A stretch of 64,000 nt of DNA from Neodothiora populina (Eukaryota). The stretch is from NCBI RefSeq assembly GCF_041146345.1, contig NW_027191411.1, positions 868,001 through 932,000 on the forward strand, in the 5' to 3' direction. The translations under genes were made by a program, and so were the position numbers. Shown in pieces: positions 3,935-34,432 of the stretch (position 1 is its first letter; every line of letters begins with the position of its first letter). A model generated the notes under the pieces. That model did no database searches. It saw only the letters and a program-made list of their open reading frames with translations, and was not told where the DNA came from.

Positions 3935-6900
3935 ATGTCGTCGCTAAAGAATGCCGAGTCGCAATGGCTCGAACAGCTAAAGGCGATGAGGACAGCCATT
4001 GCAGACTTGAATTTGCCAACAAAAGATGAATCCATGACTGCATATGGTGATGGCGTCTGGACTGACGAAGAAGACTTCACCGATATCACCAGCGGGGATG
4101 ACATATGGGATTTGATCGACGAGGAGGAAGATGAGTCTAGCAGCGATGCTATGGGCGAATTTGAGGAACATTATGCTACTGCTGATTCCGAAGTGCATGC
4201 GTACGGGACGTCATGGCTACAACAACAGTTATCTGGTGTCGTAAGCCGTAGCAGCGGACTGGACTTGAATGATCTACAACAGCAGATCGTAGCGATACTA
4301 AGCTCTGATAGCAGTGACGATGAGCTACAAATGCTTCTGGCCGATACCGTCGGTTTTGAGGAACTTGACACTGTTGCTGAGCTCATTTCTCACCGTACGG
4401 ATATCATTGCTAGTGTCCAACAGTCTACGAGTCATCCGGAACCCACACCAGGCCGCTTGCTCAGCCGCAGGGAACGCGAGGCTGCATTGCACAGACAAGA
4501 CTACGAGCACAAAACTTCCGATCTAGCATCCGCTCAAGACCGCACCGGTCCTCGTTACCCTCATGTCTACAAGGCTCATGACGCTGGCAATGCACTGTCT
4601 TCGCATGGTAAAAAATACTTGTTGCCTGTCGGTAGTGAACGTAAAGAGCACGAGAAGTACGAAGAATACTCGATCCCACCTGCAAAGACCGGTGTCCTAG
4701 GTCGCGGCCAGAGCTTAGTCCACATCAAAGATATGGACCCTCTGTGCCGCGGTACCTTTCCGGGCTACAAATCCCTCAATCGCATGCAGAGTTTGGTATA
4801 TCCTGTAGCATACAAGACAAGCGAGAACATGTTGATCTGTGCTCCGACTGGTGCGGGTAAGACTGATGCGGCAATGTTGACTATTCTAAATACAATCGCC
4901 AAGAACATGTCTCCTAGTCCTTTTGAAGACCCAGAAGCTACTGACTTTGCTGTGCACACCGATGATTTCAAGATTGTCTATGTCGCGCCTATGAAAGCTC
5001 TTGCTGCCGAAGTGACTGAAAAACTCGGCAAGCGCCTGGCATGGCTTGGGATACGAGTCCGTGAACTCACGGGAGACATGCACCTTACGAAGTCCGAGAT
5101 TGTTCAAACACAGATTCTTGTGACAACTCCCGAAAAGTGGGATGTTGTCACGAGAAAGAGTACTGGAGACACCGAGCTCGTTCAGAAAGTGCGTTTACTC
5201 ATCATCGATGAGGTCCACATGTTGCATGACGAACGCGGTGCCGTGCTCGAGTCTTTGGTCGCTCGAACTGAGAGGCAAGTGGAAAGTACTCAGTCGCTCA
5301 TCCGTATCGTTGGTTTATCCGCCACTCTGCCGAACTATGTCGACGTTGCAGACTTTCTCAAGGTCAATCGCTATGCTGGTCTCTTCTACTTCGATCAATC
5401 CTTCCGTCCTGTACCACTGGAACAACATTTCCTCGGAGTGAAAGGCAAGTCAGGAAGCAAGACATCCCGAGACAACATTGACCAAGTGGCTTTTGAGAAA
5501 GTCCGAGAAATGCTGGAACTAGGACATCAGGTCATGGTATTTGTACACTCCAGGAAGGACACTGCAAAGACTGCGAAGACCATGCACGAGATGGCAGTAG
5601 AGCAAGGCTGTAGTGATCTTTTCGATCCTGCTGGGCATGATGCGTACGGGCAAGCCATGCGTGACCTAAAGACGTCAAAGGGACGTGAGCTTAGAGAGCT
5701 CGTACCAAAGGGATTCGGGACTCACAATGCTGGTATGCCTCGCTCCGATCGTAATATGATAGAGCGGTTTTTCGCAGAAGGCGTCATCAGGGTGTTGTGC
5801 TGTACAGCCACCCTTGCGTGGGGTGTGAACTTGCCTGCAGCAGCAGTCGTCATCAAGGGAACTCAACTCTACAGCGCAGAAGCAGGTAAGTTTGTCGACC
5901 TAGGAATACTTGACGTCCTGCAAATCTTTGGTCGTGCTGGTCGTCCCCAGTTCCAAGATACTGGTATCGGTTTCATTTGCACCACTCAGGACAAATTACA
6001 ACACTATCTTACCGCTGTTACCCAACAGCAGCCAATCGAGTCCAACTTCTCGAAAAGAATGGTTGATAATCTCAATGCCGAAATCGCGCTTGGAACAGTC
6101 ACATCTGTCGCTGAAGCGGTACAATGGCTTGGTTACTCATACCTCTTCGTTCGTATGCAACGCAATCCCATGTCATATGGCATCGATTGGGCGGAAATTC
6201 GAGACGACCCGCAGCTCGTGCAAAGACGAAGAGAGCTCATCATGAAGGCAGCTCGAGTACTGCAGCAAAGTCAAATGATCATCTTCAACGAGACGACTGA
6301 GGAACTTCGCGCTAAAGACGTAGGACGTATTGCAAGTCAATACTACGTTTTGCAGACTAGCGTTGAGATATTCAACACCATGATGCGTCCTCAGGCTACT
6401 GAAGCCGATGTTCTGAAGATGATCAGTATGAGCGGTGAATTCGACAACATCACTTCGAGGGAGACAGAAGAAAAGGAATTGATAAGGCTGAAAGACGAAG
6501 CTTCACCTTGCGATATCGAAGGAGGTATCGGTACGCAGTCTGGAAAGACCAATGTCCTTCTGCAATCTTACATTTCCCGCGCCCGTCTGGAAGATTTTAC
6601 ACTAGTATCCGACACTGCTTACGTGGCTCAAAATGCTACCCGTATCTGCAGAGCGCTATTCATGATAGCGCTAAACAGACGGTGGGGCTACCAGTGTTTG
6701 GTGCTGCTGTCAATGTGCAAGTCGATTGAGAAGCAAGTATGGCCGTACCAGCATCCTTTTCACCAGTTCGATCTACCACAGCCCGTCCTTAGAAACCTTG
6801 ACGAGAAGGGTTCGACTGCCTCTATCGAGTCTCTGCACGACATGGAACCTGCAGAGATCGGTCAGCTCGTTCACAATGGCAAAATGGGATATACAATCTC

Positions 6901-9900
6901 CAAATTGCTAGACAACTTTCCCACATTGACTGTGGAGGCTGAGATAGCCCCTCTGAATCGAGATGTCCTTCGAGTTCGACTCTACATTACCCCCGACTTC
7001 CGATGGAATGATAGACACCACGGCACGTCAGAGTCTTACTGGATTTGGGTTGAGAACTCGGAGACGTCCGAAATCTATCATCACGAATACTTCATCCTTT
7101 CCAGGAAAAAGCTTTACGATGAGCACGAGCTTAGTTTCACAATTCCTCTCACTGATCCCTTGCCCTCCCAGATCTATGTACGTGCAGTCTCGGACAGATG
7201 GATGGGCGCAGAGACAGTCACACCAGTCTCGTTCCAGCACCTCATCAGACCTGATACGGAGAGCGTATACACGGACTTGCTCAATCTACAGCCATTGCCT
7301 ATCTCAGCTCTGAAGAATCCGCTACTTGAAGAGCTCTATGGCGAACGTTTCCAGTTCTTCAACCCCATGCAGACACAACTGTTCCATTGTATGTATCATA
7401 CCCCAACGAACGTTTTACTGGGATCTCCGACCGGAAGTGGCAAAACTGTGGCTGCTGAGCTTGCCATGTGGTGGGCCTTCCGTGAGCGACCAGGGTCGAA
7501 AGTTGTCTACATCGCACCCATGAAAGCCCTGGTCCGCGAGAGAGTCCAGGACTGGGGCCGCCGCCTGACTAGACGTATGGGATTGAAGCTTGTCGAACTG
7601 ACAGGTGACAACACTCCCGATACACGCACTATCCGAGATGCCGATATCATCATTACCACTCCTGAGAAGTGGGATGGTATCAGTCGTAGTTGGCAGACGA
7701 GAGACTATGTTCGCAAGGTCAGTCTGGTCATCATTGACGAGATTCATCTGCTTGGTGGTGACAGAGGTCCTATCCTGGAGATCATTGTCTCTCGTATGAA
7801 CTACATCGCGTCCCAAAAGAAGGGCTCGGTTAGACTCGTAGGCATGTCTACGGCTTGTGCGAATGCGACTGATCTGGGCAACTGGTTGGGCGTGAAGGAA
7901 GGCTTGTTCAACTTCCGTCACTCAGTCAGACCTGTACCCCTGGAGATCTTCATCGACGGCTTCCCCGAGCAGAGAGGCTTCTGCCCCCTTATGCAGTCGA
8001 TGAACCGGCCGACCTTCCTCGCTATCAAGACCCACTCACCTGATAAGCCAGTAATCGTGTTCGTAGCGTCTCGCCGTCAAACACGCTTGACGGCACGCGA
8101 TCTCATCAATTTCTGCGGCATGGAAGACAACCCTCGTAGATTTGTACGCATGTCTGAAGAGGACCTTGGACTCAACCTTTCAAGAGTGAAAGATGAAGCC
8201 TTGCGCGAAGCACTAAGCTTCGGTATTGGTCTCCATCATGCTGGTCTCGTCGAGTCTGATAGACAATTGTCAGAAGAGCTATTCGCAAACAACAAGATCC
8301 AGATCCTTGTTGCTACCAGTACTCTTGCTTGGGGTGTCAATTTGCCTGCTCATCTAGTAGTGGTCAAGGGAACACAGTATTTTGATGCCAAGATAGAAGG
8401 TTACAAAGACATGGATTTGACCGATGTGCTGCAGATGCTCGGTCGTGCTGGACGTCCCGGTTTCGACACATCTGGAGTGGCCCGCATCTTCACGCAAGAT
8501 GCTAAGAAGGCTTTCTACAAGCATTTCCTTCACACTGGATTCCCTGTTGAGTCCTCTCTTCACAACGTCCTGGACAACCATTTGGGTGCAGAAGTGTCGG
8601 CGGAGACCATCGGCACAAAACAGGACGCCCTGGATTACCTGACGTGGACGTTCTTCTTCAGGCGCTTACATAAGAACCCGTCCTACTACGGTCTTGAGAT
8701 CTCGTCAGAAGAGCACAATACAATGGCAGCTCAGCAACTCGCAAATGATTACATGATCGAAATGGTCGACAAGTCGCTGGGCGAGCTTGCTGAGTCTGGC
8801 TGTGTCACCTTGCACAACAATGGCGATGTCGACCCGACACCACTGGGCAAGATCATGAGTTATTACTATCTCGCGCACAAGACGATCCGTTATCTCCTCA
8901 AACATGCGAAGCCAAATGCAACGTTTGCAAACGCATTGGCATGGATGTGTAGCGCCACCGAATATGATGAATTGCCCGTTCGACACAACGAAGATGGTGT
9001 CAATGAGCAACTTTCCAACGCCCTTCCCCTTAGTGCTCTTGATGACATGCCAGGCCTACCAATGTGGGATCCTCATATCAAGTCTTTCGTCCTGCTCCAA
9101 GCGCATTTCTCTCGCATCGACCTTCCAATCTCTGATTACGTAGGTGATCAAACCTCGATCCTCGACCAAGCGATTCGTATCCTGCAGGCTTCGATTGATG
9201 TCCTCACTGAGATGGGCTTCCGCTCCAGTTGCGCACAGATGATGACACTACTCCAATGCGTCAAATCAGCACGCTGGCCAGATGAAGGGCCGCTGTCCAT
9301 CTTCCCAGGTGTTGATTCAGAGATCGAGAAGAAACGCGTGCAGTCCGATAGCAACAGCAAACCACGCACTTTAGTCGAAGCGACCACGATGCCAAGAAAA
9401 GAGCTAGAAAGCGTACTGAGCAAGAAACACAACCTGCCTCCGCCAGCTCACGCACGCGTCTTCAAAGCCCTCGCCATGCTTCCCCAGCTCAAGGTCACAG
9501 TCCCCGAAGTCAATGCCCTGGGCCTGACCGTCGTTCTTAACAGACTCAATCCAATCTCAGACGCGGAATGCAGAATGTTCACCCCTCGCTTCCCCAAGCC
9601 TCAAACTGAAGGCTTCTTCCTCATCGTCTCAGACCCCAAGACCGACGAGATTATCGCCTTGAAACGCATCTCTTGGCCCAGCAGAGACGATAAGCGCAAC
9701 AATGGAGGCGGCAAGCAGCAGCAACGCGGGGGTGGCCTAGGTGCGCCGAAAGGCAATGGCAGGCTTTTGTCGACGAAAGCGAGCGTGAAGCTGCCTCCTG
9801 CGGACCAGGAGAGGCTTCTTGAGGTCAAGATCATCAGCGATGGATACATCGGTATGGAATGGAAGGTCGAAGGGATTGAAGTGCCGATACCGCCTAGAGT

Positions 9901-9937
9901 CGTCGATGAAGGCAAGAAGGTTGCTGCGCAGGAGTAG
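3935..9937 (+). CDS. SLH1: Ski2-like tandem-cassette helicase Slh1/Rqt2 (ASCC3/Mug81 orthologue), intronless, about 2000 aa
   Basis: Two DExH cassettes (APTGAGKT/DEVH and SPTGSGKT/DEIH), each followed by a Sec63-like region. First ATG is at 3935 (the track starts at an upstream TTG). PHVY motif and HLLGGDRGPILE favour Slh1/ASCC3 over Brr2. Confidence 0.92.
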   Translation: MSSLKNAESQWLEQLKAMRTAIADLNLPTKDESMTAYGDGVWTDEEDFTDITSGDDIWDLIDEEEDESSSDAMGEFEEHYATADSEVHAYGTSWLQQQLSGVVSRSSGLDLNDLQQQIVAILSSDSSDDELQMLLADTVGFEELDTVAELISHRTDIIASVQQSTSHPEPTPGRLLSRREREAALHRQDYEHKTSDLASAQDRTGPRYPHVYKAHDAGNALSSHGKKYLLPVGSERKEHEKYEEYSIPPAKTGVLGRGQSLVHIKDMDPLCRGTFPGYKSLNRMQSLVYPVAYKTSENMLICAPTGAGKTDAAMLTILNTIAKNMSPSPFEDPEATDFAVHTDDFKIVYVAPMKALAAEVTEKLGKRLAWLGIRVRELTGDMHLTKSEIVQTQILVTTPEKWDVVTRKSTGDTELVQKVRLLIIDEVHMLHDERGAVLESLVARTERQVESTQSLIRIVGLSATLPNYVDVADFLKVNRYAGLFYFDQSFRPVPLEQHFLGVKGKSGSKTSRDNIDQVAFEKVREMLELGHQVMVFVHSRKDTAKTAKTMHEMAVEQGCSDLFDPAGHDAYGQAMRDLKTSKGRELRELVPKGFGTHNAGMPRSDRNMIERFFAEGVIRVLCCTATLAWGVNLPAAAVVIKGTQLYSAEAGKFVDLGILDVLQIFGRAGRPQFQDTGIGFICTTQDKLQHYLTAVTQQQPIESNFSKRMVDNLNAEIALGTVTSVAEAVQWLGYSYLFVRMQRNPMSYGIDWAEIRDDPQLVQRRRELIMKAARVLQQSQMIIFNETTEELRAKDVGRIASQYYVLQTSVEIFNTMMRPQATEADVLKMISMSGEFDNITSRETEEKELIRLKDEASPCDIEGGIGTQSGKTNVLLQSYISRARLEDFTLVSDTAYVAQNATRICRALFMIALNRRWGYQCLVLLSMCKSIEKQVWPYQHPFHQFDLPQPVLRNLDEKGSTASIESLHDMEPAEIGQLVHNGKMGYTISKLLDNFPTLTVEAEIAPLNRDVLRVRLYITPDFRWNDRHHGTSESYWIWVENSETSEIYHHEYFILSRKKLYDEHELSFTIPLTDPLPSQIYVRAVSDRWMGAETVTPVSFQHLIRPDTESVYTDLLNLQPLPISALKNPLLEELYGERFQFFNPMQTQLFHCMYHTPTNVLLGSPTGSGKTVAAELAMWWAFRERPGSKVVYIAPMKALVRERVQDWGRRLTRRMGLKLVELTGDNTPDTRTIRDADIIITTPEKWDGISRSWQTRDYVRKVSLVIIDEIHLLGGDRGPILEIIVSRMNYIASQKKGSVRLVGMSTACANATDLGNWLGVKEGLFNFRHSVRPVPLEIFIDGFPEQRGFCPLMQSMNRPTFLAIKTHSPDKPVIVFVASRRQTRLTARDLINFCGMEDNPRRFVRMSEEDLGLNLSRVKDEALREALSFGIGLHHAGLVESDRQLSEELFANNKIQILVATSTLAWGVNLPAHLVVVKGTQYFDAKIEGYKDMDLTDVLQMLGRAGRPGFDTSGVARIFTQDAKKAFYKHFLHTGFPVESSLHNVLDNHLGAEVSAETIGTKQDALDYLTWTFFFRRLHKNPSYYGLEISSEEHNTMAAQQLANDYMIEMVDKSLGELAESGCVTLHNNGDVDPTPLGKIMSYYYLAHKTIRYLLKHAKPNATFANALAWMCSATEYDELPVRHNEDGVNEQLSNALPLSALDDMPGLPMWDPHIKSFVLLQAHFSRIDLPISDYVGDQTSILDQAIRILQASIDVLTEMGFRSSCAQMMTLLQCVKSARWPDEGPLSIFPGVDSEIEKKRVQSDSNSKPRTLVEATTMPRKELESVLSKKHNLPPPAHARVFKALAMLPQLKVTVPEVNALGLTVVLNRLNPISDAECRMFTPRFPKPQTEGFFLIVSDPKTDEIIALKRISWPSRDDKRNNGGGKQQQRGGGLGAPKGNGRLLSTKASVKLPPADQERLLEVKIISDGYIGMEWKVEGIEVPIPPRVVDEGKKVAAQE

Positions 9938-28337: not shown

Positions 28338-29627
28338 TCACCGCAAAGGCACGGCGATCTCTTCGACAGGCTCGCTAACCTCCCTGGGACTCTGAGCTGG
28401 CGTAAGCCACGCGTCTTGCGTCTGGGGTACTTTGAGACCCTTCTCGCGAGCCCGCTTCTCGACATATGCCTTGTCTGGACTGTCCCATGCATAATCAAGG
28501 TACTCTTCCAGGTGCTCTTGAATGCCATCCGCCATAATCTGAACAGCACGTTTGCGGTTCAGACTCCATTCGTGGTCTCGTGCCCAACGACCAGCCTTTC
28601 GAGCAGTCTCTTGACCATCCTCAAGACCATCGAGGATACTCCTCCACACCTGCATCGTCTTCTCGAGCTCGCTGTGGTTACTGACGCCCATGACGCTGAT
28701 TCCCAGCTTCTTACCGCCAACTTGCTCATTGGACTCACGGGTCCAAGGCACACCGGAGGCGGGATCACCGCGTGATCCTACAGCCTCGCCTTGTGTGATC
28801 CAGGCCTCGAAAGCAAAACGGATGGCGATGATCTCGATGCGTTCGCCATGGCGATCGCAAAAGTCGCTGGCCCGACGCACAGCAGCACGAGTGCCCGCGC
28901 CAGCGGGGTGCCAATCGCCTTGACCTCCCATCGGAGGACCCACATGTCTGAGCAGACCCATACCCAACGGCGATGCGTTTGGCACGACGTCGACGCCAGC
29001 AGCCTTGAGCAGGTGCATACCCGAAGATGCAAGAGTAGTGTTTTGAAGAGTGAAGTTCGCATAAGACATGACCGCATCGAGACCCTCGCCAGTCTCCTCC
29101 AAGATGCGTTTGGCTAGCGAACACAGTACTGGTAGCGGATAGCCGGAGATACCCACGTACTTGATCGTGCCGTCCTGGTCCCGGATCCTGCGCAGCTCTT
29201 TCACAGCCTCAACCACTTCTTCTTCGTCGACGAATTCCACGTCATGACAGTACACGACGTCGAGATACTCAGTGTGCAGGCGCTGCAGACTGCGCTTGAT
29301 GCTCTGTCGAATCCATGCTGGCGAATAGTCGAAGTCGTCACCTGCGATGCGCCCGCATTTGGTGACGTAGAAAAGATCCTGTCGCGGAAAGTTGGCGTGT
29401 ACAAATGGAGTATCAAGAGCAGCGCCTAGTAATTCCTCGGAAGGACCATAGTAAGGCGAAGTATCAAACGCCCTGATACCGAATTCCAGAGCCTTTTGTA
29501 CAAGTCCGACGCTGTCTAAGTCTTCGAGGTGATTGTATTGCGTGTTGAAGGTCGCGGTTCCGAAGATGAGAGGAGGTAAGATAGACGAGAGTGGCTGCGC
29601 CGGTTTTCCTTTGCTGATTGTCGCCAT
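28338..29627 (-). CDS. ARA2: AKR-family NAD-dependent D-arabinose / L-galactose dehydrogenase (Ara2-like)
   Basis: LPPLIFGTATFN, AFDTSPYYGPSE, TKCGR, FDYS, LDVVYCHDVEFV, YVGISGYPL. Confidence 0.82.
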   Translation of the reverse strand: MATISKGKPAQPLSSILPPLIFGTATFNTQYNHLEDLDSVGLVQKALEFGIRAFDTSPYYGPSEELLGAALDTPFVHANFPRQDLFYVTKCGRIAGDDFDYSPAWIRQSIKRSLQRLHTEYLDVVYCHDVEFVDEEEVVEAVKELRRIRDQDGTIKYVGISGYPLPVLCSLAKRILEETGEGLDAVMSYANFTLQNTTLASSGMHLLKAAGVDVVPNASPLGMGLLRHVGPPMGGQGDWHPAGAGTRAAVRRASDFCDRHGERIEIIAIRFAFEAWITQGEAVGSRGDPASGVPWTRESNEQVGGKKLGISVMGVSNHSELEKTMQVWRSILDGLEDGQETARKAGRWARDHEWSLNRKRAVQIMADGIQEHLEEYLDYAWDSPDKAYVEKRAREKGLKVPQTQDAWLTPAQSPREVSEPVEEIAVPLR

Positions 29628-30058
29628 TGAGAACCCTACAAGTAACGAGTAAGGGCTAGGATGTGCCGTAATCTCGATATGCGGGACGATAAGGTGGAAT
29701 TTCTATGATGTATCAATGACGTTGGGGCGGGCGGCGGCAAGTATAGATATATATGTAAATATCTCTACCTGTATGAGTGGCTACCTGTCCCCAGATATGC
29801 GAATTTGGATCTGCAGAGGAAGACGCAGTGCCTAAAGTTGCGGGTAAAGTAGTACAGTAGTGGAGAGAAAGACGATATGGCGGGGAGATCGATCGATTTT
29901 GCAACGCAAACACCAAATGTCTGCCCATGAGACACGAGGGCCAAAGACAAAAGAGTAGTTGTGGAGTGTGGAAACTATCGCCAAAGTAGGCGCAAAGGGA
30001 GACCGGCTAGAAACTTACTGGACCGCCTCTACTTACTACGCGGCAACCAACATCCAAA

Positions 30059-30071
30059 CGGCCCTAACCCT
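30059..30071 (+). promoter_or_regulatory. CGGCCCTAACCCT, a telomere-like / Tbf1-type motif; identical copy at 35121-35133
   Basis: Exact 13-nt match at two intergenic sites, each near a gene 5' end. Function is inferred. Confidence 0.4.
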
Positions 30072-30282
30072 TCGCCCACGAAAATGTGGGATAATGATAT
30101 AAACGACTTTGGGCGGTGCCAGGCCCACGCCTCACGCCTCACGCTTGCCCACCCGTCCCCTTCCCTCCACGTTTAACTAGAGATCTAAATCTCTTGGCCC
30201 GCATCCTTATTCACTTCTCGATACGAGCATTCATTCTTCTATCAACCTAGCTCGGCAACGTTCCCAGCAAATCCAACCCCAT

Positions 30283-30691
30283 CTCGTAACTTAATTGCGA
30301 TCGGGAAAGGATGAATGCGAAGTCAAAAGGATGTATGGGCGCCTTTTTCCCACGCAGTCGAGTACCCCAGTATCCATCCCCTTTCTGTCGCTCCGAGGTA
30401 GCTGCTGAGTGTTCTTGATTCGCGATCACGTAGATTGACCGTGTCTGTATCGGGCGTTCACTAGACAAATTCTTGAGAGATCGGACCTCGGAGAATACAT
30501 CGAGTCTGGAGTTAAGCTGGGCGAAAGACTATCGCCGAAGTAAAGGGTGGGTGGACCCTCATAACCTCCCGATCACTGATGTTGCTCAACCGCATGATAG
30601 TGTAGTAACTTACGCCTCCAGCGGTTGTTCCTTCGAGAACGTAGGGCGAAACGAAACAAGACTCGATGTTACGTTAGGTAAGCTTTTTACA
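30283..30691 (+). ncRNA. Putative structured non-coding RNA of unknown family, with a hairpin-hinge-hairpin (H/ACA-like) layout
   Basis: Perfect helices 30391-30399/30485-30493 (9 bp), 30497-30507/30659-30669 (11 bp) and 30587-30593/30621-30627 (7 bp). ANANNA (AGAATA) at 30492-30497 lies between the two domains. No credible ORF. Confidence 0.5.
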
Positions 30692-30778
30692 TCCCTCCAG
30701 CGCCATGCTCATTTAATACGAGATTAAAAGCACAAAGATCCAAAAACAAAACTCCTTTGCCTCGCTCAGTCCCATTAT

Positions 30779-33700
30779 TTAATATGCCATGCCGCTACGT
30801 CCTTGTCCGACAGTCTTGAAAGTCATGGATTGTGCACTCATTGCGAGTGTGTCGAGTGGATCGACATCCATAAGCTGTTAAGCAAATGTTAGTCATGTGC
30901 AGAAAGTCGTTCATAGAGAAGTTTCACTTACGTTCACGCTCTCGTAACCAGAGAACCAAAAGCCCATAATGATGACCAAGTATGCCAAGATCAGAATACT
31001 GCCCTTGAAGTAGTTGCTCTTTCCCTCACCGACTACCCAGCCCATTAGAAACACTCCTAGAATCACTGTCACCATATCCCATTGTGGGAAGATTAACGTA
31101 AATGTATGATCCACGATGTCGGTCAGATCAATGTATCGGCTGTGCACAGTAGAGTAAAGCACAAGCGCCGGCACTTGAAGCAGCATCACCTGCAGAGCAT
31201 ACGCCGATCCGATCTCCATACTCAGAGCAATATTGCCATTCATCGCGAATGAGATGGCATTCAAGAACTCGGTCGTGTTGGGGACCAACGCGAAGAGTGT
31301 TATGCCCAAGAACTTCTCGTCGATGTCCACATGCTCCAGTACAGAGTCAACGGTATCGACCAGAATCTCTGCAATAATAGCGTATGCTATCGTCGCTGTA
31401 AGCAGGATCACGGCACTCTTCGTTCGACTCCAGTTGGGTGCATCGTGCCCACCAGAAGCATGTGCAGCCTCGCCAACAAGCTCTTCGGCACCACCGGACA
31501 CTGGCACATACGCGGCCTGCGCTGGTCCGCTTGCTGTAGCGCATACTTGCTGTTGCTGCGCAGTATGGTGCGGGTGATGATGGTGTCGAACCGAACCCGA
31601 AGTGGTGGCGGCCTTCTGTGATGTTCGTCTCGGCATTCTTGCAGCATCACGCGCCGCGACGGCCGCAGCGGTGGCAGCCATCTCAGCAACTTGTCTCACA
31701 AGTACTGAATTCTCTTGCGCAGAAAGTCCATGTATGTGAAGACTTCGCTGACTTCTCCGATCATCCTCGTCGTCGTCGTTCTTTGGTGGGACAAGATGAG
31801 GTATTCCATGCTGTATGGGGGAGTCAGGGTGGTGAGTTTTGACTGGAGACGAGGGCTCCGCCGGTGTCTGTGGAAGACCTGCTTGCCTCAAGGACTGTCC
31901 GAGAATGCGCTTGTAAAGTTGCGAATCGCGGATGTTCTCTTTTGGTAGACTACCTGTCGTATTACTGGTGTTCTGCCTGGTCATAGTGCTGTATGGGTCG
32001 ACGACGCCTGCGATAGGCCTGTGTTCGGGATGCATGGCTGCGTGCAATGCAGCCTGCTCCATCTTCTCGACCTTCTTTTCGTCAAATTCATTGTTCCAGA
32101 TGACAGCAGCGTGCGTGCGGAGGGTGAAGAGCAGGCCGATGACGTAGGAGAAGAAAAGCATGACTGCAGCAAACCAGATGTATGGTCTGACAGCTTCGTT
32201 GAAGAAACGATCATGAAGAGCTGGTGCTTGATTGAAATAACATCGCCTGCAGTCACGTTCAAGAGCAGCGCTATCGGAGTGAGCATAGCGACAATGATGA
32301 CAATTGAGCTCATGCTGTATAATTGGTCAGTTGTTATCATGAGGAGTTGGACAGACTGTACTCACGCTTCCGTAGATTTGGTAGAACAAGGTCGGACTGA
32401 AGGAGCCAATAACGGCGAACAAAAGCATAGTGGAAGTCACGCCTGCTGAACGAACATTGAACCGCTGAGTCTTACGCTTGATCGCGCCGAAGCACATGGA
32501 AAGTCCAGGCAAGAAAAGAATGCCGGCAAAAATACTACCGATGATACTCCCCTCGACTAGCTGCGCCTTGCCTTGGTTGAGAGCAACGCAGTACAAGAAG
32601 ACCTCGACAATGGTGGAGAAAAAGGCGTTTATGGTAGCGCCGACGCCCATAGATGATTGGGCGGAGATGGATGCAACGGCCTGTCCGATGAAGTATGCCA
32701 ACGGAATGATGGAGAAGAGCCCTAGGATGAAAATGAATCCGGACGAAGTGATGAGCGACTGCATTTCTAGCGCATTTCTAAGAACGTAAAAGTCGAAGAT
32801 GGCAAAGGCCACCATGCTGAGCAAGTTGATAAGGAAGATGTTGGTGCCGTCGACAGTATATTTCCAGTACTTGCTACCAACAGCGCGATAAGTGCACAGT
32901 AGAACACTTGACGAAGGACCATTCGGGTCTCTAGAGTAATGCCCGTCGGAGTGAAACGAGAGAGCAAGGGGATGGCGGCGAAGATGATGAAACAACAAAA
33001 TCGTGACCCTGCCCATGGGGATAGTGAAGACGAGGAACCAGCAAATACCTGAAGCGAAGAAGAGGAGGGGCGTAACTAAGCCGTAAAAGAAGACGAAGAA
33101 GATTATTCGACCAGCAGTCCACTGGCCACGGCCGAATAGCCTGTTCTTGGTTCTCGTCTTCTGGTCGCTCGATCGTCGACTCGGTCTACCGAGTAAGCTA
33201 TCGGTCTCGTTTGCGGATTCAATGCTGTCTCGTCGGCGGCCTATCAGAGAGCGGGTAGTTTCAGAAACAGAAGTAGGTCCAAAGAAAAGACGACCCTCTT
33301 CCAGGTCGCCGGTTTGCCATCGCTCATATTCGCTGATGCTGCGGCCCTCTGCCTGATCCTCGTCGAGATAAGCCTCGTCATGCTCGAGCTTGACATATTT
33401 GCCGAATGGGTAGAATATATAGCCTGCAAAGTTCCAGAAGATGGCACCATACTCCCTAGAGCCGGGCGCAAAGATGAACAGAAAGCATACAAGAGCGCCG
33501 AGAGCGGAGGCCAAGGCTAACCACCAGCCGAACAGCAGTGACCAGAGGATGTTGCTGAGAGACAACCAAGTGCTGACGTTCCCGCCAGGGGTAGAATGGA
33601 TATCTCCTTCAGCATTGGCCTGAACGGAGCGGTCTTTCTTGTACAAGGCAGGCTTCCAGATCCTGATACCAAAGGGATGAGTCTCGTTGATTGCCTCTTG

Positions 33701-34432
33701 GCGGTCCTTGAGTGTAAAGCTCTCTGCATCGCTAAGGTCTGCATCGTCGCCATCCTCGGCCGAGTTGCTGTCCTGATTGATATCATCATCATCGTCGTCG
33801 TCGTCGTCGTTCTGGTCGTCATCGTCGCCGTTGTTTCCAGTGGCGGTGTTGAGTCGAGCGACTTCCTCATCTTCATCCTCGGGACGCAGTGTGTCATCAG
33901 TGTCATCGGACGGCGGGTTCTTGGGCTTGTCTTTCGATCCACTAGGGGGTTCATGGTCCTCTCGCTCATCAGACTCAACTCGGGGCAGAGCGGGAGCCTG
34001 GGCGGCAGGACGTCGCCTCAGAGTCGAGGCTTTCCGCCGGAGCATGTGTGCAGAGGAAGTCGAGGTGGTAGCTTTGTTAAGCTTCTGGTCTTGCTCGACT
34101 TCGTCATGAGCGTCGTCGACGGAGAACTCCTGGCCTCTGTAGGGCGTGTTAGATGAGGTGCGCCGAGGTAGCGATGGCTTCTTAGGAGTGCGCGGTGTTG
34201 AAGACGAAGAAGCAGGTTTGGTAGAAATGCTCCCGTAATTGGGCCCCAGGCCTGGTCTCGGGCGCTTGCTGGCGGCGTCGCGGGTTGCCGACGAGGATGC
34301 CTGAGGGGCGAGTAGACCGGGCGAAGTCGTGGTGCTGTCAAGGGCAGAGTCTTTGGTCTCAGGTCGGGTGGAAGAAGAGTCGGCCTCTTCTTGCGATGGA
34401 AGTCCAGAGGGATTCCCATTGCTGTCGGCCAT
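30779..34432 (-). CDS. VNX1: Vacuolar cation/H+ exchanger Vnx1 (CaCA family with YccF-like N-terminal region). Exons 32366-34432, 30932-32314, 30779-30874
   Basis: ESFTLKDRQEAINETHPFGIRIWKPALYKK, IGQAVASISAQSSMGVGATINAFFST, LVPNTTEFLNAISFAMNGNIALSMEIGSAY and GKSNYFKG. Two canonical introns restore the frame. Confidence 0.92.

Follow-up and report, generated by a model that had tools for sequence, protein, structure and literature searches.

Gene content of the locus

The candidate element lies in a 64,000-nt stretch of Neodothiora populina DNA (the window; G000:C17:868001-932000), in the 24-Mb genome of a filamentous ascomycete, and the closest clusters of the neighbouring proteins are from Ascomycota. 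It occupies part of a gap of 1.28 kb, flanked on one side by an aldo/keto reductase gene and on the other by a Ca/H exchanger gene, whose 3' end faces it, and had been placed by an initial annotation, made from the sequence alone, at 30283-30691. The neighbours and the promoter-like sequence of the gap are as follows:

28338-29627, minus strand: aldo/keto reductase gene, D-arabinose 1-dehydrogenase-like, divergent neighbour
30061-30103, plus strand: promoter-like words RCCCTAA (at 30061) and TATAAA (at 30098), function predicted
30130-30279, plus strand: pyrimidine-rich tract by composition (0.76, 0.60 and 0.64 per 50 nt)
30911-34432, minus strand: Ca/H exchanger gene with a YccF domain, convergent neighbour, in two ORF pieces

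The reductase gene has a TATA word of its own, 126 nt ahead of its ATG, and the exchanger is presumably VNX1-like. The sequence 30200-30760 is single copy in the genome and carries no RIP signature, and a MITE or other repeat was rejected on these grounds. One sequencing run, probably of DNA, gave a 232-nt contig over 30285-30516 with no differences at a depth of 3.5, which carries no weight either way.

The gap had been described as having no credible ORF, and indeed no ATG-started ORF of at least 100 aa was found in it. A stop-free frame of 97 codons (30434-30727) contains the donor word AG/GTAAGC and could be imagined as part of a small spliced protein gene, but it has no ATG, two further frames of 93-97 codons are present in the same gap, no Pfam family was matched and the best atlas value was 0.82 with low recognition; we regard such a gene as very improbable.

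Secondary structure of the element

The structural features of the gap and the words associated with them are listed below.

30179-30194, plus strand: 6-bp hairpin, probability 0.93
30197-30340, plus strand: rod with interruptions between its 4+8+5+12 pairs, carrying a side hairpin and branching at its top, seen with wider context
30296-30356, plus strand: first hairpin of the initial annotation with its ends corrected, probability at most 0.01
30391-30493, no strand assigned: domain enclosed by a perfect 9-bp stem, its interior folding worse than shuffles
30492-30497, plus strand: AGAATA, H-box-like, overlapping the feet of both closing stems
30497-30669, no strand assigned: domain enclosed by a perfect 11-bp stem, with a probability of 0.94 in the bounds first given and of 0.08-0.20 in wider contexts
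30520-30536, no strand assigned: 5-bp hairpin GGCGA/TCGCC, from the fold
30587-30627, plus strand: 7-bp stem with a 6-bp upper stem, two G-U pairs on this strand, probability 0.96-0.98 in 5/5 contexts
30627-30640, plus strand: 4-bp hairpin with a TTCG loop closed by C.A, probability 0.11-0.13
30676-30688, plus strand: donor-like word AG/GTAAGC followed by a run of five T

Both closing stems of the initial annotation were recovered letter for letter, the 9-bp stem at 30391-30399/30485-30493 and, 3 nt after it, the 11-bp stem at 30497-30507/30659-30669, and the inner helices GGCGA/TCGCC and CAACCGC/GCGGTTG are present as it gave them. The donor-like word after the last helix was also found, with its G at 30678, 8 nt behind the last stem; this 8-letter word occurs three times in the window. 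The hairpin said to open the element at 30283-30362 in fact spans 30296-30356 and had a pair probability of 0.00-0.01 in 5/5 contexts; forcing it costs 10.5 kcal/mol, its interior folds worse than 200/200 interior shuffles, and it is excluded because the rod at 30197-30340 takes its 5' arm. In the proposed UUCG-capped hairpin a C.A mismatch closes the loop, and base 30627 is also used by the stem next to it; with its low probability on the plus strand it is an improbable fold. For the suggested pseudoknot or kissing interaction, the words ACTATC (30528-30533) and GATAGT (30596-30601) are in place, but their pairing is at chance level, with a mean of 4.7 complementary hexamer pairs in 2000 shuffles of the 173-nt domain, and both words lie partly inside stems.

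The element had been called strongly structured, and comparison with shuffled sequence did not bear this out. The whole element on the plus strand gave z scores of +1.49 (95/100 shuffles as good) and +0.82 (79/100), on the minus strand +0.08 and -0.89 against dinucleotide shuffles, and the longer stretch 30170-30700 gave +0.27. The 3' domain (30497-30669) taken alone scored -2.4 and -3.0, a low value which arises because its bounds were placed on the closing stem: with the closing arms fixed, 154/300 interior shuffles folded as well on the plus strand and 46/300 on the minus strand, and for the middle domain 200/200 and 199/200 interior shuffles were as good or better. Among 36 chance segments closed by a stem of at least 11 bp and scored on the better strand, 23 reached -2.4 and 16 reached -3.0. 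An adjacent pair of 9-bp and 11-bp stems arose in 26/300 block-shuffled windows, and 551,564 bases from other fungal loci held a single case, within a tandem repeat. Perfect closing stems that are picked by eye and then used to set the bounds of a domain thus yield low z scores by construction, and this calls for caution.

The known RNAs of the N. populina genome gave z scores of +0.67 (RNase P), -0.95 (SRP), -1.15 (snR30) and -2.1 (MRP). Since the values of RNase P, SRP and snR30 are weak, folding energy fails to separate real RNAs in this genome, and the failed energy test therefore takes away the main argument of the initial annotation while leaving room for an RNA gene.

The most stable fold in the gap is an interrupted rod, 30197-30238/30307-30340, with 29 pairs in four segments, which had been overlooked; it lies partly outside the bounds first given to the element and is seen only with more sequence context. 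Its z score was -4.8 on the plus strand (better than 300/300 shuffles) and -3.0 on the minus strand, it was better than 200/200 shuffles in each of four block-shuffle settings, and its pair probability was 0.96-0.98 in 4/4 contexts. The plus strand is therefore argued for by the bias of the rod and not by the G-U pairs of the inner helices, which had been taken to favour it and which number 15 of 152 pairs on the plus strand and 16 of 151 on the minus strand, with shuffle means of 17 and 18. The rod, both closing stems and the inner hairpins coexist in one minimum-energy fold.

The rod was also placed on a window-wide scale by a regression-based scan with one shuffled replicate, where it scored -4.1, the best window of MRP RNA scoring -3.9 and that of snR30 -3.2. 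The real window held eight other loci at z -4.0 or below and the one shuffled window ten, six of them at -4.1 or below, and these null counts are a floor, since the coarse filter missed the rod itself. Chance yields several loci of this grade per 64 kb, and by arithmetic from the one replicate, again as a floor, the chance that an equally good rod falls no more than about 600 nt from a chosen position is at least 0.06. The lowest folding z of the window, -6.7 at 5010-5260, falls inside a 2000-aa ORF (3935-9937).

Promoter-like sequence of the gap

The word RCCCTAA at 30061 is taken by us to be a Tbf1-type site. Pyrimidine tracts similar to that at 30130-30279 precede the starts of the snR30, RNase P, U1 and U3 genes in this genome, and the U1 and U3 genes have a TATA word about 45 nt ahead of the start; the same spacing in the gap would put a start near 30140-30180.

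A word common to several of the known RNA genes, GCYCGTGCRC, was also observed. It precedes both U1 genes by 69 nt and snR30 by about 90 nt, and stands upstream of MRP as well. In 532,283 bases from other loci it matched exactly three times, and five of the nine known ncRNA loci lack it, namely those of RNase P, SRP, the telomerase RNA and the two U3 genes. In the gap no copy was found at up to one mismatch. The word is a possible candidate for an ncRNA-gene promoter element, and no literature match for it was found.

Comparison with known RNA families

The initial annotation had seen no signatures of snR30, RNase P/MRP, SRP, U-snRNA or U3, and this was borne out, as genes for snR30, RNase P, MRP, SRP, U1 and U3 lie elsewhere in the genome: RNase P and MRP on C6, SRP at C17:1284800, the two U1 genes on C3 and C7, and the two U3 genes on C7 and at C17:1850101; the telomerase RNA is on C2. 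In the Rfam search that had been proposed as a check, no family reached the gathering score in the window, and at E of 10 or below the element had only sub-threshold matches (sR52 at 18.7 bits of 50 and two weaker ones). Rfam missed or under-scored the real snR30, telomerase RNA and U1 of this genome. The telomerase RNA candidate (L002:1000-3092, minus strand), with the template TAACCCTAA, scored 24.6 bits, under the Rfam cut-off; it is followed by a tRNA-like gene, and no canonical donor word was seen near its 3' part.

The snR30/U17 orthologue, with m1, m2 and ACA, is at G000:C16:238445-238510 (L092:1497-1805, minus strand). It was missed by RF01271, which like a first pattern gave no match, and was found with a relaxed m1/m2 pattern drawn from PMC7601244 and from N. 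crassa ACA12 (PMC5824354; PMC2780460). This pattern occurs at two places in the genome, neither of them at the element, and the place on C16 matches N. crassa ACA12. The element resembles snR30/U17, as described in the same sources, in belonging to the 300-600 nt class and in having ANANNA between stem-closed domains, but it has neither m1/m2 nor an ACA at the foot of a stem. The part of PMC12095548 that was available added nothing on filamentous fungi. Neither U3 gene has an obvious 5' intron; a small intron is reported in each N. crassa U3 gene (PMC2780460).

Several other identities were considered. No match to HDV-like descriptors, no hammerhead core word and no Rfam ribozyme at E of 10 or below were found at the element. 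A suspected likeness to a group I intron was dropped, no Rfam match being found at E of 10 or below; unannotated fungal group I cores are reported in PMC5640933. An rRNA relic or mimic was likewise rejected: two words of 12-13 nt and a gappy collinear match to 25S rRNA were not significant, 11-25 of 308 and 10-27 of 302 background tiles scoring as well. Decayed 18S-like copies were seen near contig ends, at C9:19795-21298 and C10:19965-21412 (326 and 296 bits vs 1817). On the plus strand, box C/D-like words occur inside the rod (AGGATGA, 30308) and at 30405 and 30576 (CTGA), but none has a guide before it, and the longest plus-strand complement to rDNA is 11 nt with one G-U; the box-anchored scan missed an snR13-like control, so that odd D' boxes can escape it.

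The initial annotation had proposed a large atypical H/ACA RNA, which the evidence does not support and which we consider scarcely credible. The AGAATA word between the two stem-closed domains, its hinge, is present at 30492, but it uses two bases of the 9-bp stem, and would be single-stranded only if two pairs of one stem and one of the other opened; ANANNA occurs eight times in the 409 nt. The nearest ACA, as had been noted, is about 20 nt past the last stem (first ACA at 30689, stem end at 30669), which is out of place for this class, and the first hairpin is the improbable one described above. Guide pockets matched 15 times on the plus strand and 10 times on the minus strand vs 2-17 times in 15 shuffles, a chance-level result from a search with no positive control, whose targets were the rRNA, U1 and U3 of this genome. 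None of the pocket matches listed uses the H word at 30492, and snR30 itself is on another contig. On the minus strand an ACA follows the 9-bp stem, but the hinge has no H word.

Intron-like sequence on the minus strand

The following feature overlaps the 3' domain on the opposite strand:

30506-30613, minus strand: intron-like stretch GTAAGT ... CTTAAC ... CAG, in which 13 nt (30531-30519) are perfectly antisense to 25S rRNA

The gap holds three GTAAGT donors on this strand, and 2 nt separate the 13-nt antisense from a D-like word downstream, an arrangement found five times in 1.19 million strand-bases. Twelve letters of the antisense are shared with the D guide of N. crassa CD48/snR60 (PMC2780460). 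The minus strand might carry an intron at 30613-30506, in a long leader of the reductase gene or a tail of the exchanger gene, with a decayed guide of the snR60 kind, the helices being incidental. We consider this improbable. The C-like and D-like words both want the GA needed for a kink-turn, leaving no intact C or D box, the branch-like word departs from the consensus and stands 6 nt away from the acceptor, and no Rfam snoRNA matched at E of 10 or below. Two of the other four such runs lie in the same window, and the BLAST E value was 0.18 for a match found after many looks.

Two of the minus-strand GTAAGT donors, at 30036 and 30018, are 18 nt apart and upstream of the reductase gene, where they may belong to a 5' leader intron with a far start. 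A 15-nt direct repeat, 14/15 alike, was observed at 29974-29988 and 30528-30542, each copy downstream of a minus-strand donor. Genome-wide it has 3 exact matches (two being the copies at 29974 and 30528) and 19 near matches vs 10 in a reversed control, and it was rejected as a repeat family.

Conservation and published candidates

Relatives of the reductase were taken from metagenome contigs (the best 80 of 160, identity at most 76%). A comparison with related genomes had been suggested, and here 0/80 relatives had the exchanger or a kinase as neighbour or any DNA likeness to the element (best E 0.59); the closest reductase relative has a different gene upstream. Because none was syntenic and none was alike, the missing matches do not refute conservation. 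Models of the rod and of the 3' domain, which are weak for being built on single sequences, found only themselves in the window and in 88/94 loci (all except L001, L004, L005, L088, L089 and L091).

No description of the element was found in the literature searched, and subscription papers and two supplements may bear on the point. The four intergenic structures (1-4) described by Gao, Jones and Rivas in 2021 (PMC8216456) are also stand-alone candidates from Pezizomycotina, three of them with an H box and no ACA, but they are single hairpins with a mean length of 92-144 nt, conserved pockets and covariation.

Predicted nature of the locus

The reading we lean towards, by a modest measure, is that the element, with the reductase promoter on one side and the exchanger 3' end on the other, is non-coding flank DNA, perhaps divergently transcribed, with helices formed by chance. 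RNA polymerase II would probably fire at times from the plus-strand core promoter, that is, the TATA word at 30098, the pyrimidine tract and a start at about 30140-30180, and a divergent non-coding transcript would run across the gap towards the exchanger 3' end. The helices would be the chance tail of a sequence of 49% GC and not a selected fold. We infer this transcription, its strand and its ends, as well as the lack of function, from the features of the gap. The whole-element z score, the fixed-arm shuffles, the frequency of the stem pair, the single copy and the want of an Rfam family all favour this reading; the strength of the rod, its placement between the promoter-like tract and the domains, and the donor word 8 nt past the last stem speak against it.

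We presume the element to be of the kind of the SUT/CUT-type divergent or intergenic fungal transcripts. Such transcripts are alike in having no ORF, in diverging from a protein gene, in a promoter-like tract, in a chance fold and in single copy, whereas the rod at 30197-30340 exceeds most sequence of this kind in stability, and transcription at this locus is a prediction.

Clearly less probable than chance helices in flank DNA, though a serious rival, is a gene, restricted to one lineage, for a structured RNA of about 500 nt, in line with the undescribed ncRNA that the initial annotation had offered as its other option. It would be transcribed by polymerase II from a start at about 30140-30180 to an end at about 30677, with three domains acting as a protein-binding scaffold and a 3' end set either by the donor word or by the run of T behind the last stem. 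The rod, with its preference for the plus strand, is consistent with such a gene, as are the TATA word and a pyrimidine tract like those at U1, U3 and snR30 and the single fold that accommodates the rod together with the inner hairpins and both closing stems. Weak z scores are also found among the real RNAs of this genome, and Rfam under-detects them. Against it, each feature alone is at a 5-10% chance level or commoner, and the 11-bp stem loses most of its probability in the wider contexts. The element lacks an Sm word and a consensus C box and has no ACA box in place, and structure models gave no relative in 88 loci.

A narrower form of the RNA gene, which we hold to be quite unlikely, would be a polymerase II RNA of about 500 nt (about 30150-30677) of an undescribed family confined to one fungal lineage, its 3' end made by a spliceosomal cut at AG/GTAAGC without the second step; it would be the second RNA so matured, after telomerase RNA. 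In fungal telomerase RNA the 3' end is cut by the spliceosome (PMC4299874), and a donor-like word stands right behind the last helix, as in the element. The element differs in having no Sm word upstream of the donor word and no consensus branch word downstream of it in the gap, both of which speak against a spliceosomal 3' end, and the telomerase RNA itself is on C2.

If the RNA gene were the true reading, this fungus would have in the gap a large RNA that Rfam does not cover, and this in a genome whose usual large RNAs are accounted for. A spliceosomal 3' end, if true, would bear on the question raised by PMC4299874 of whether RNAs beyond telomerase RNA are matured in this way.
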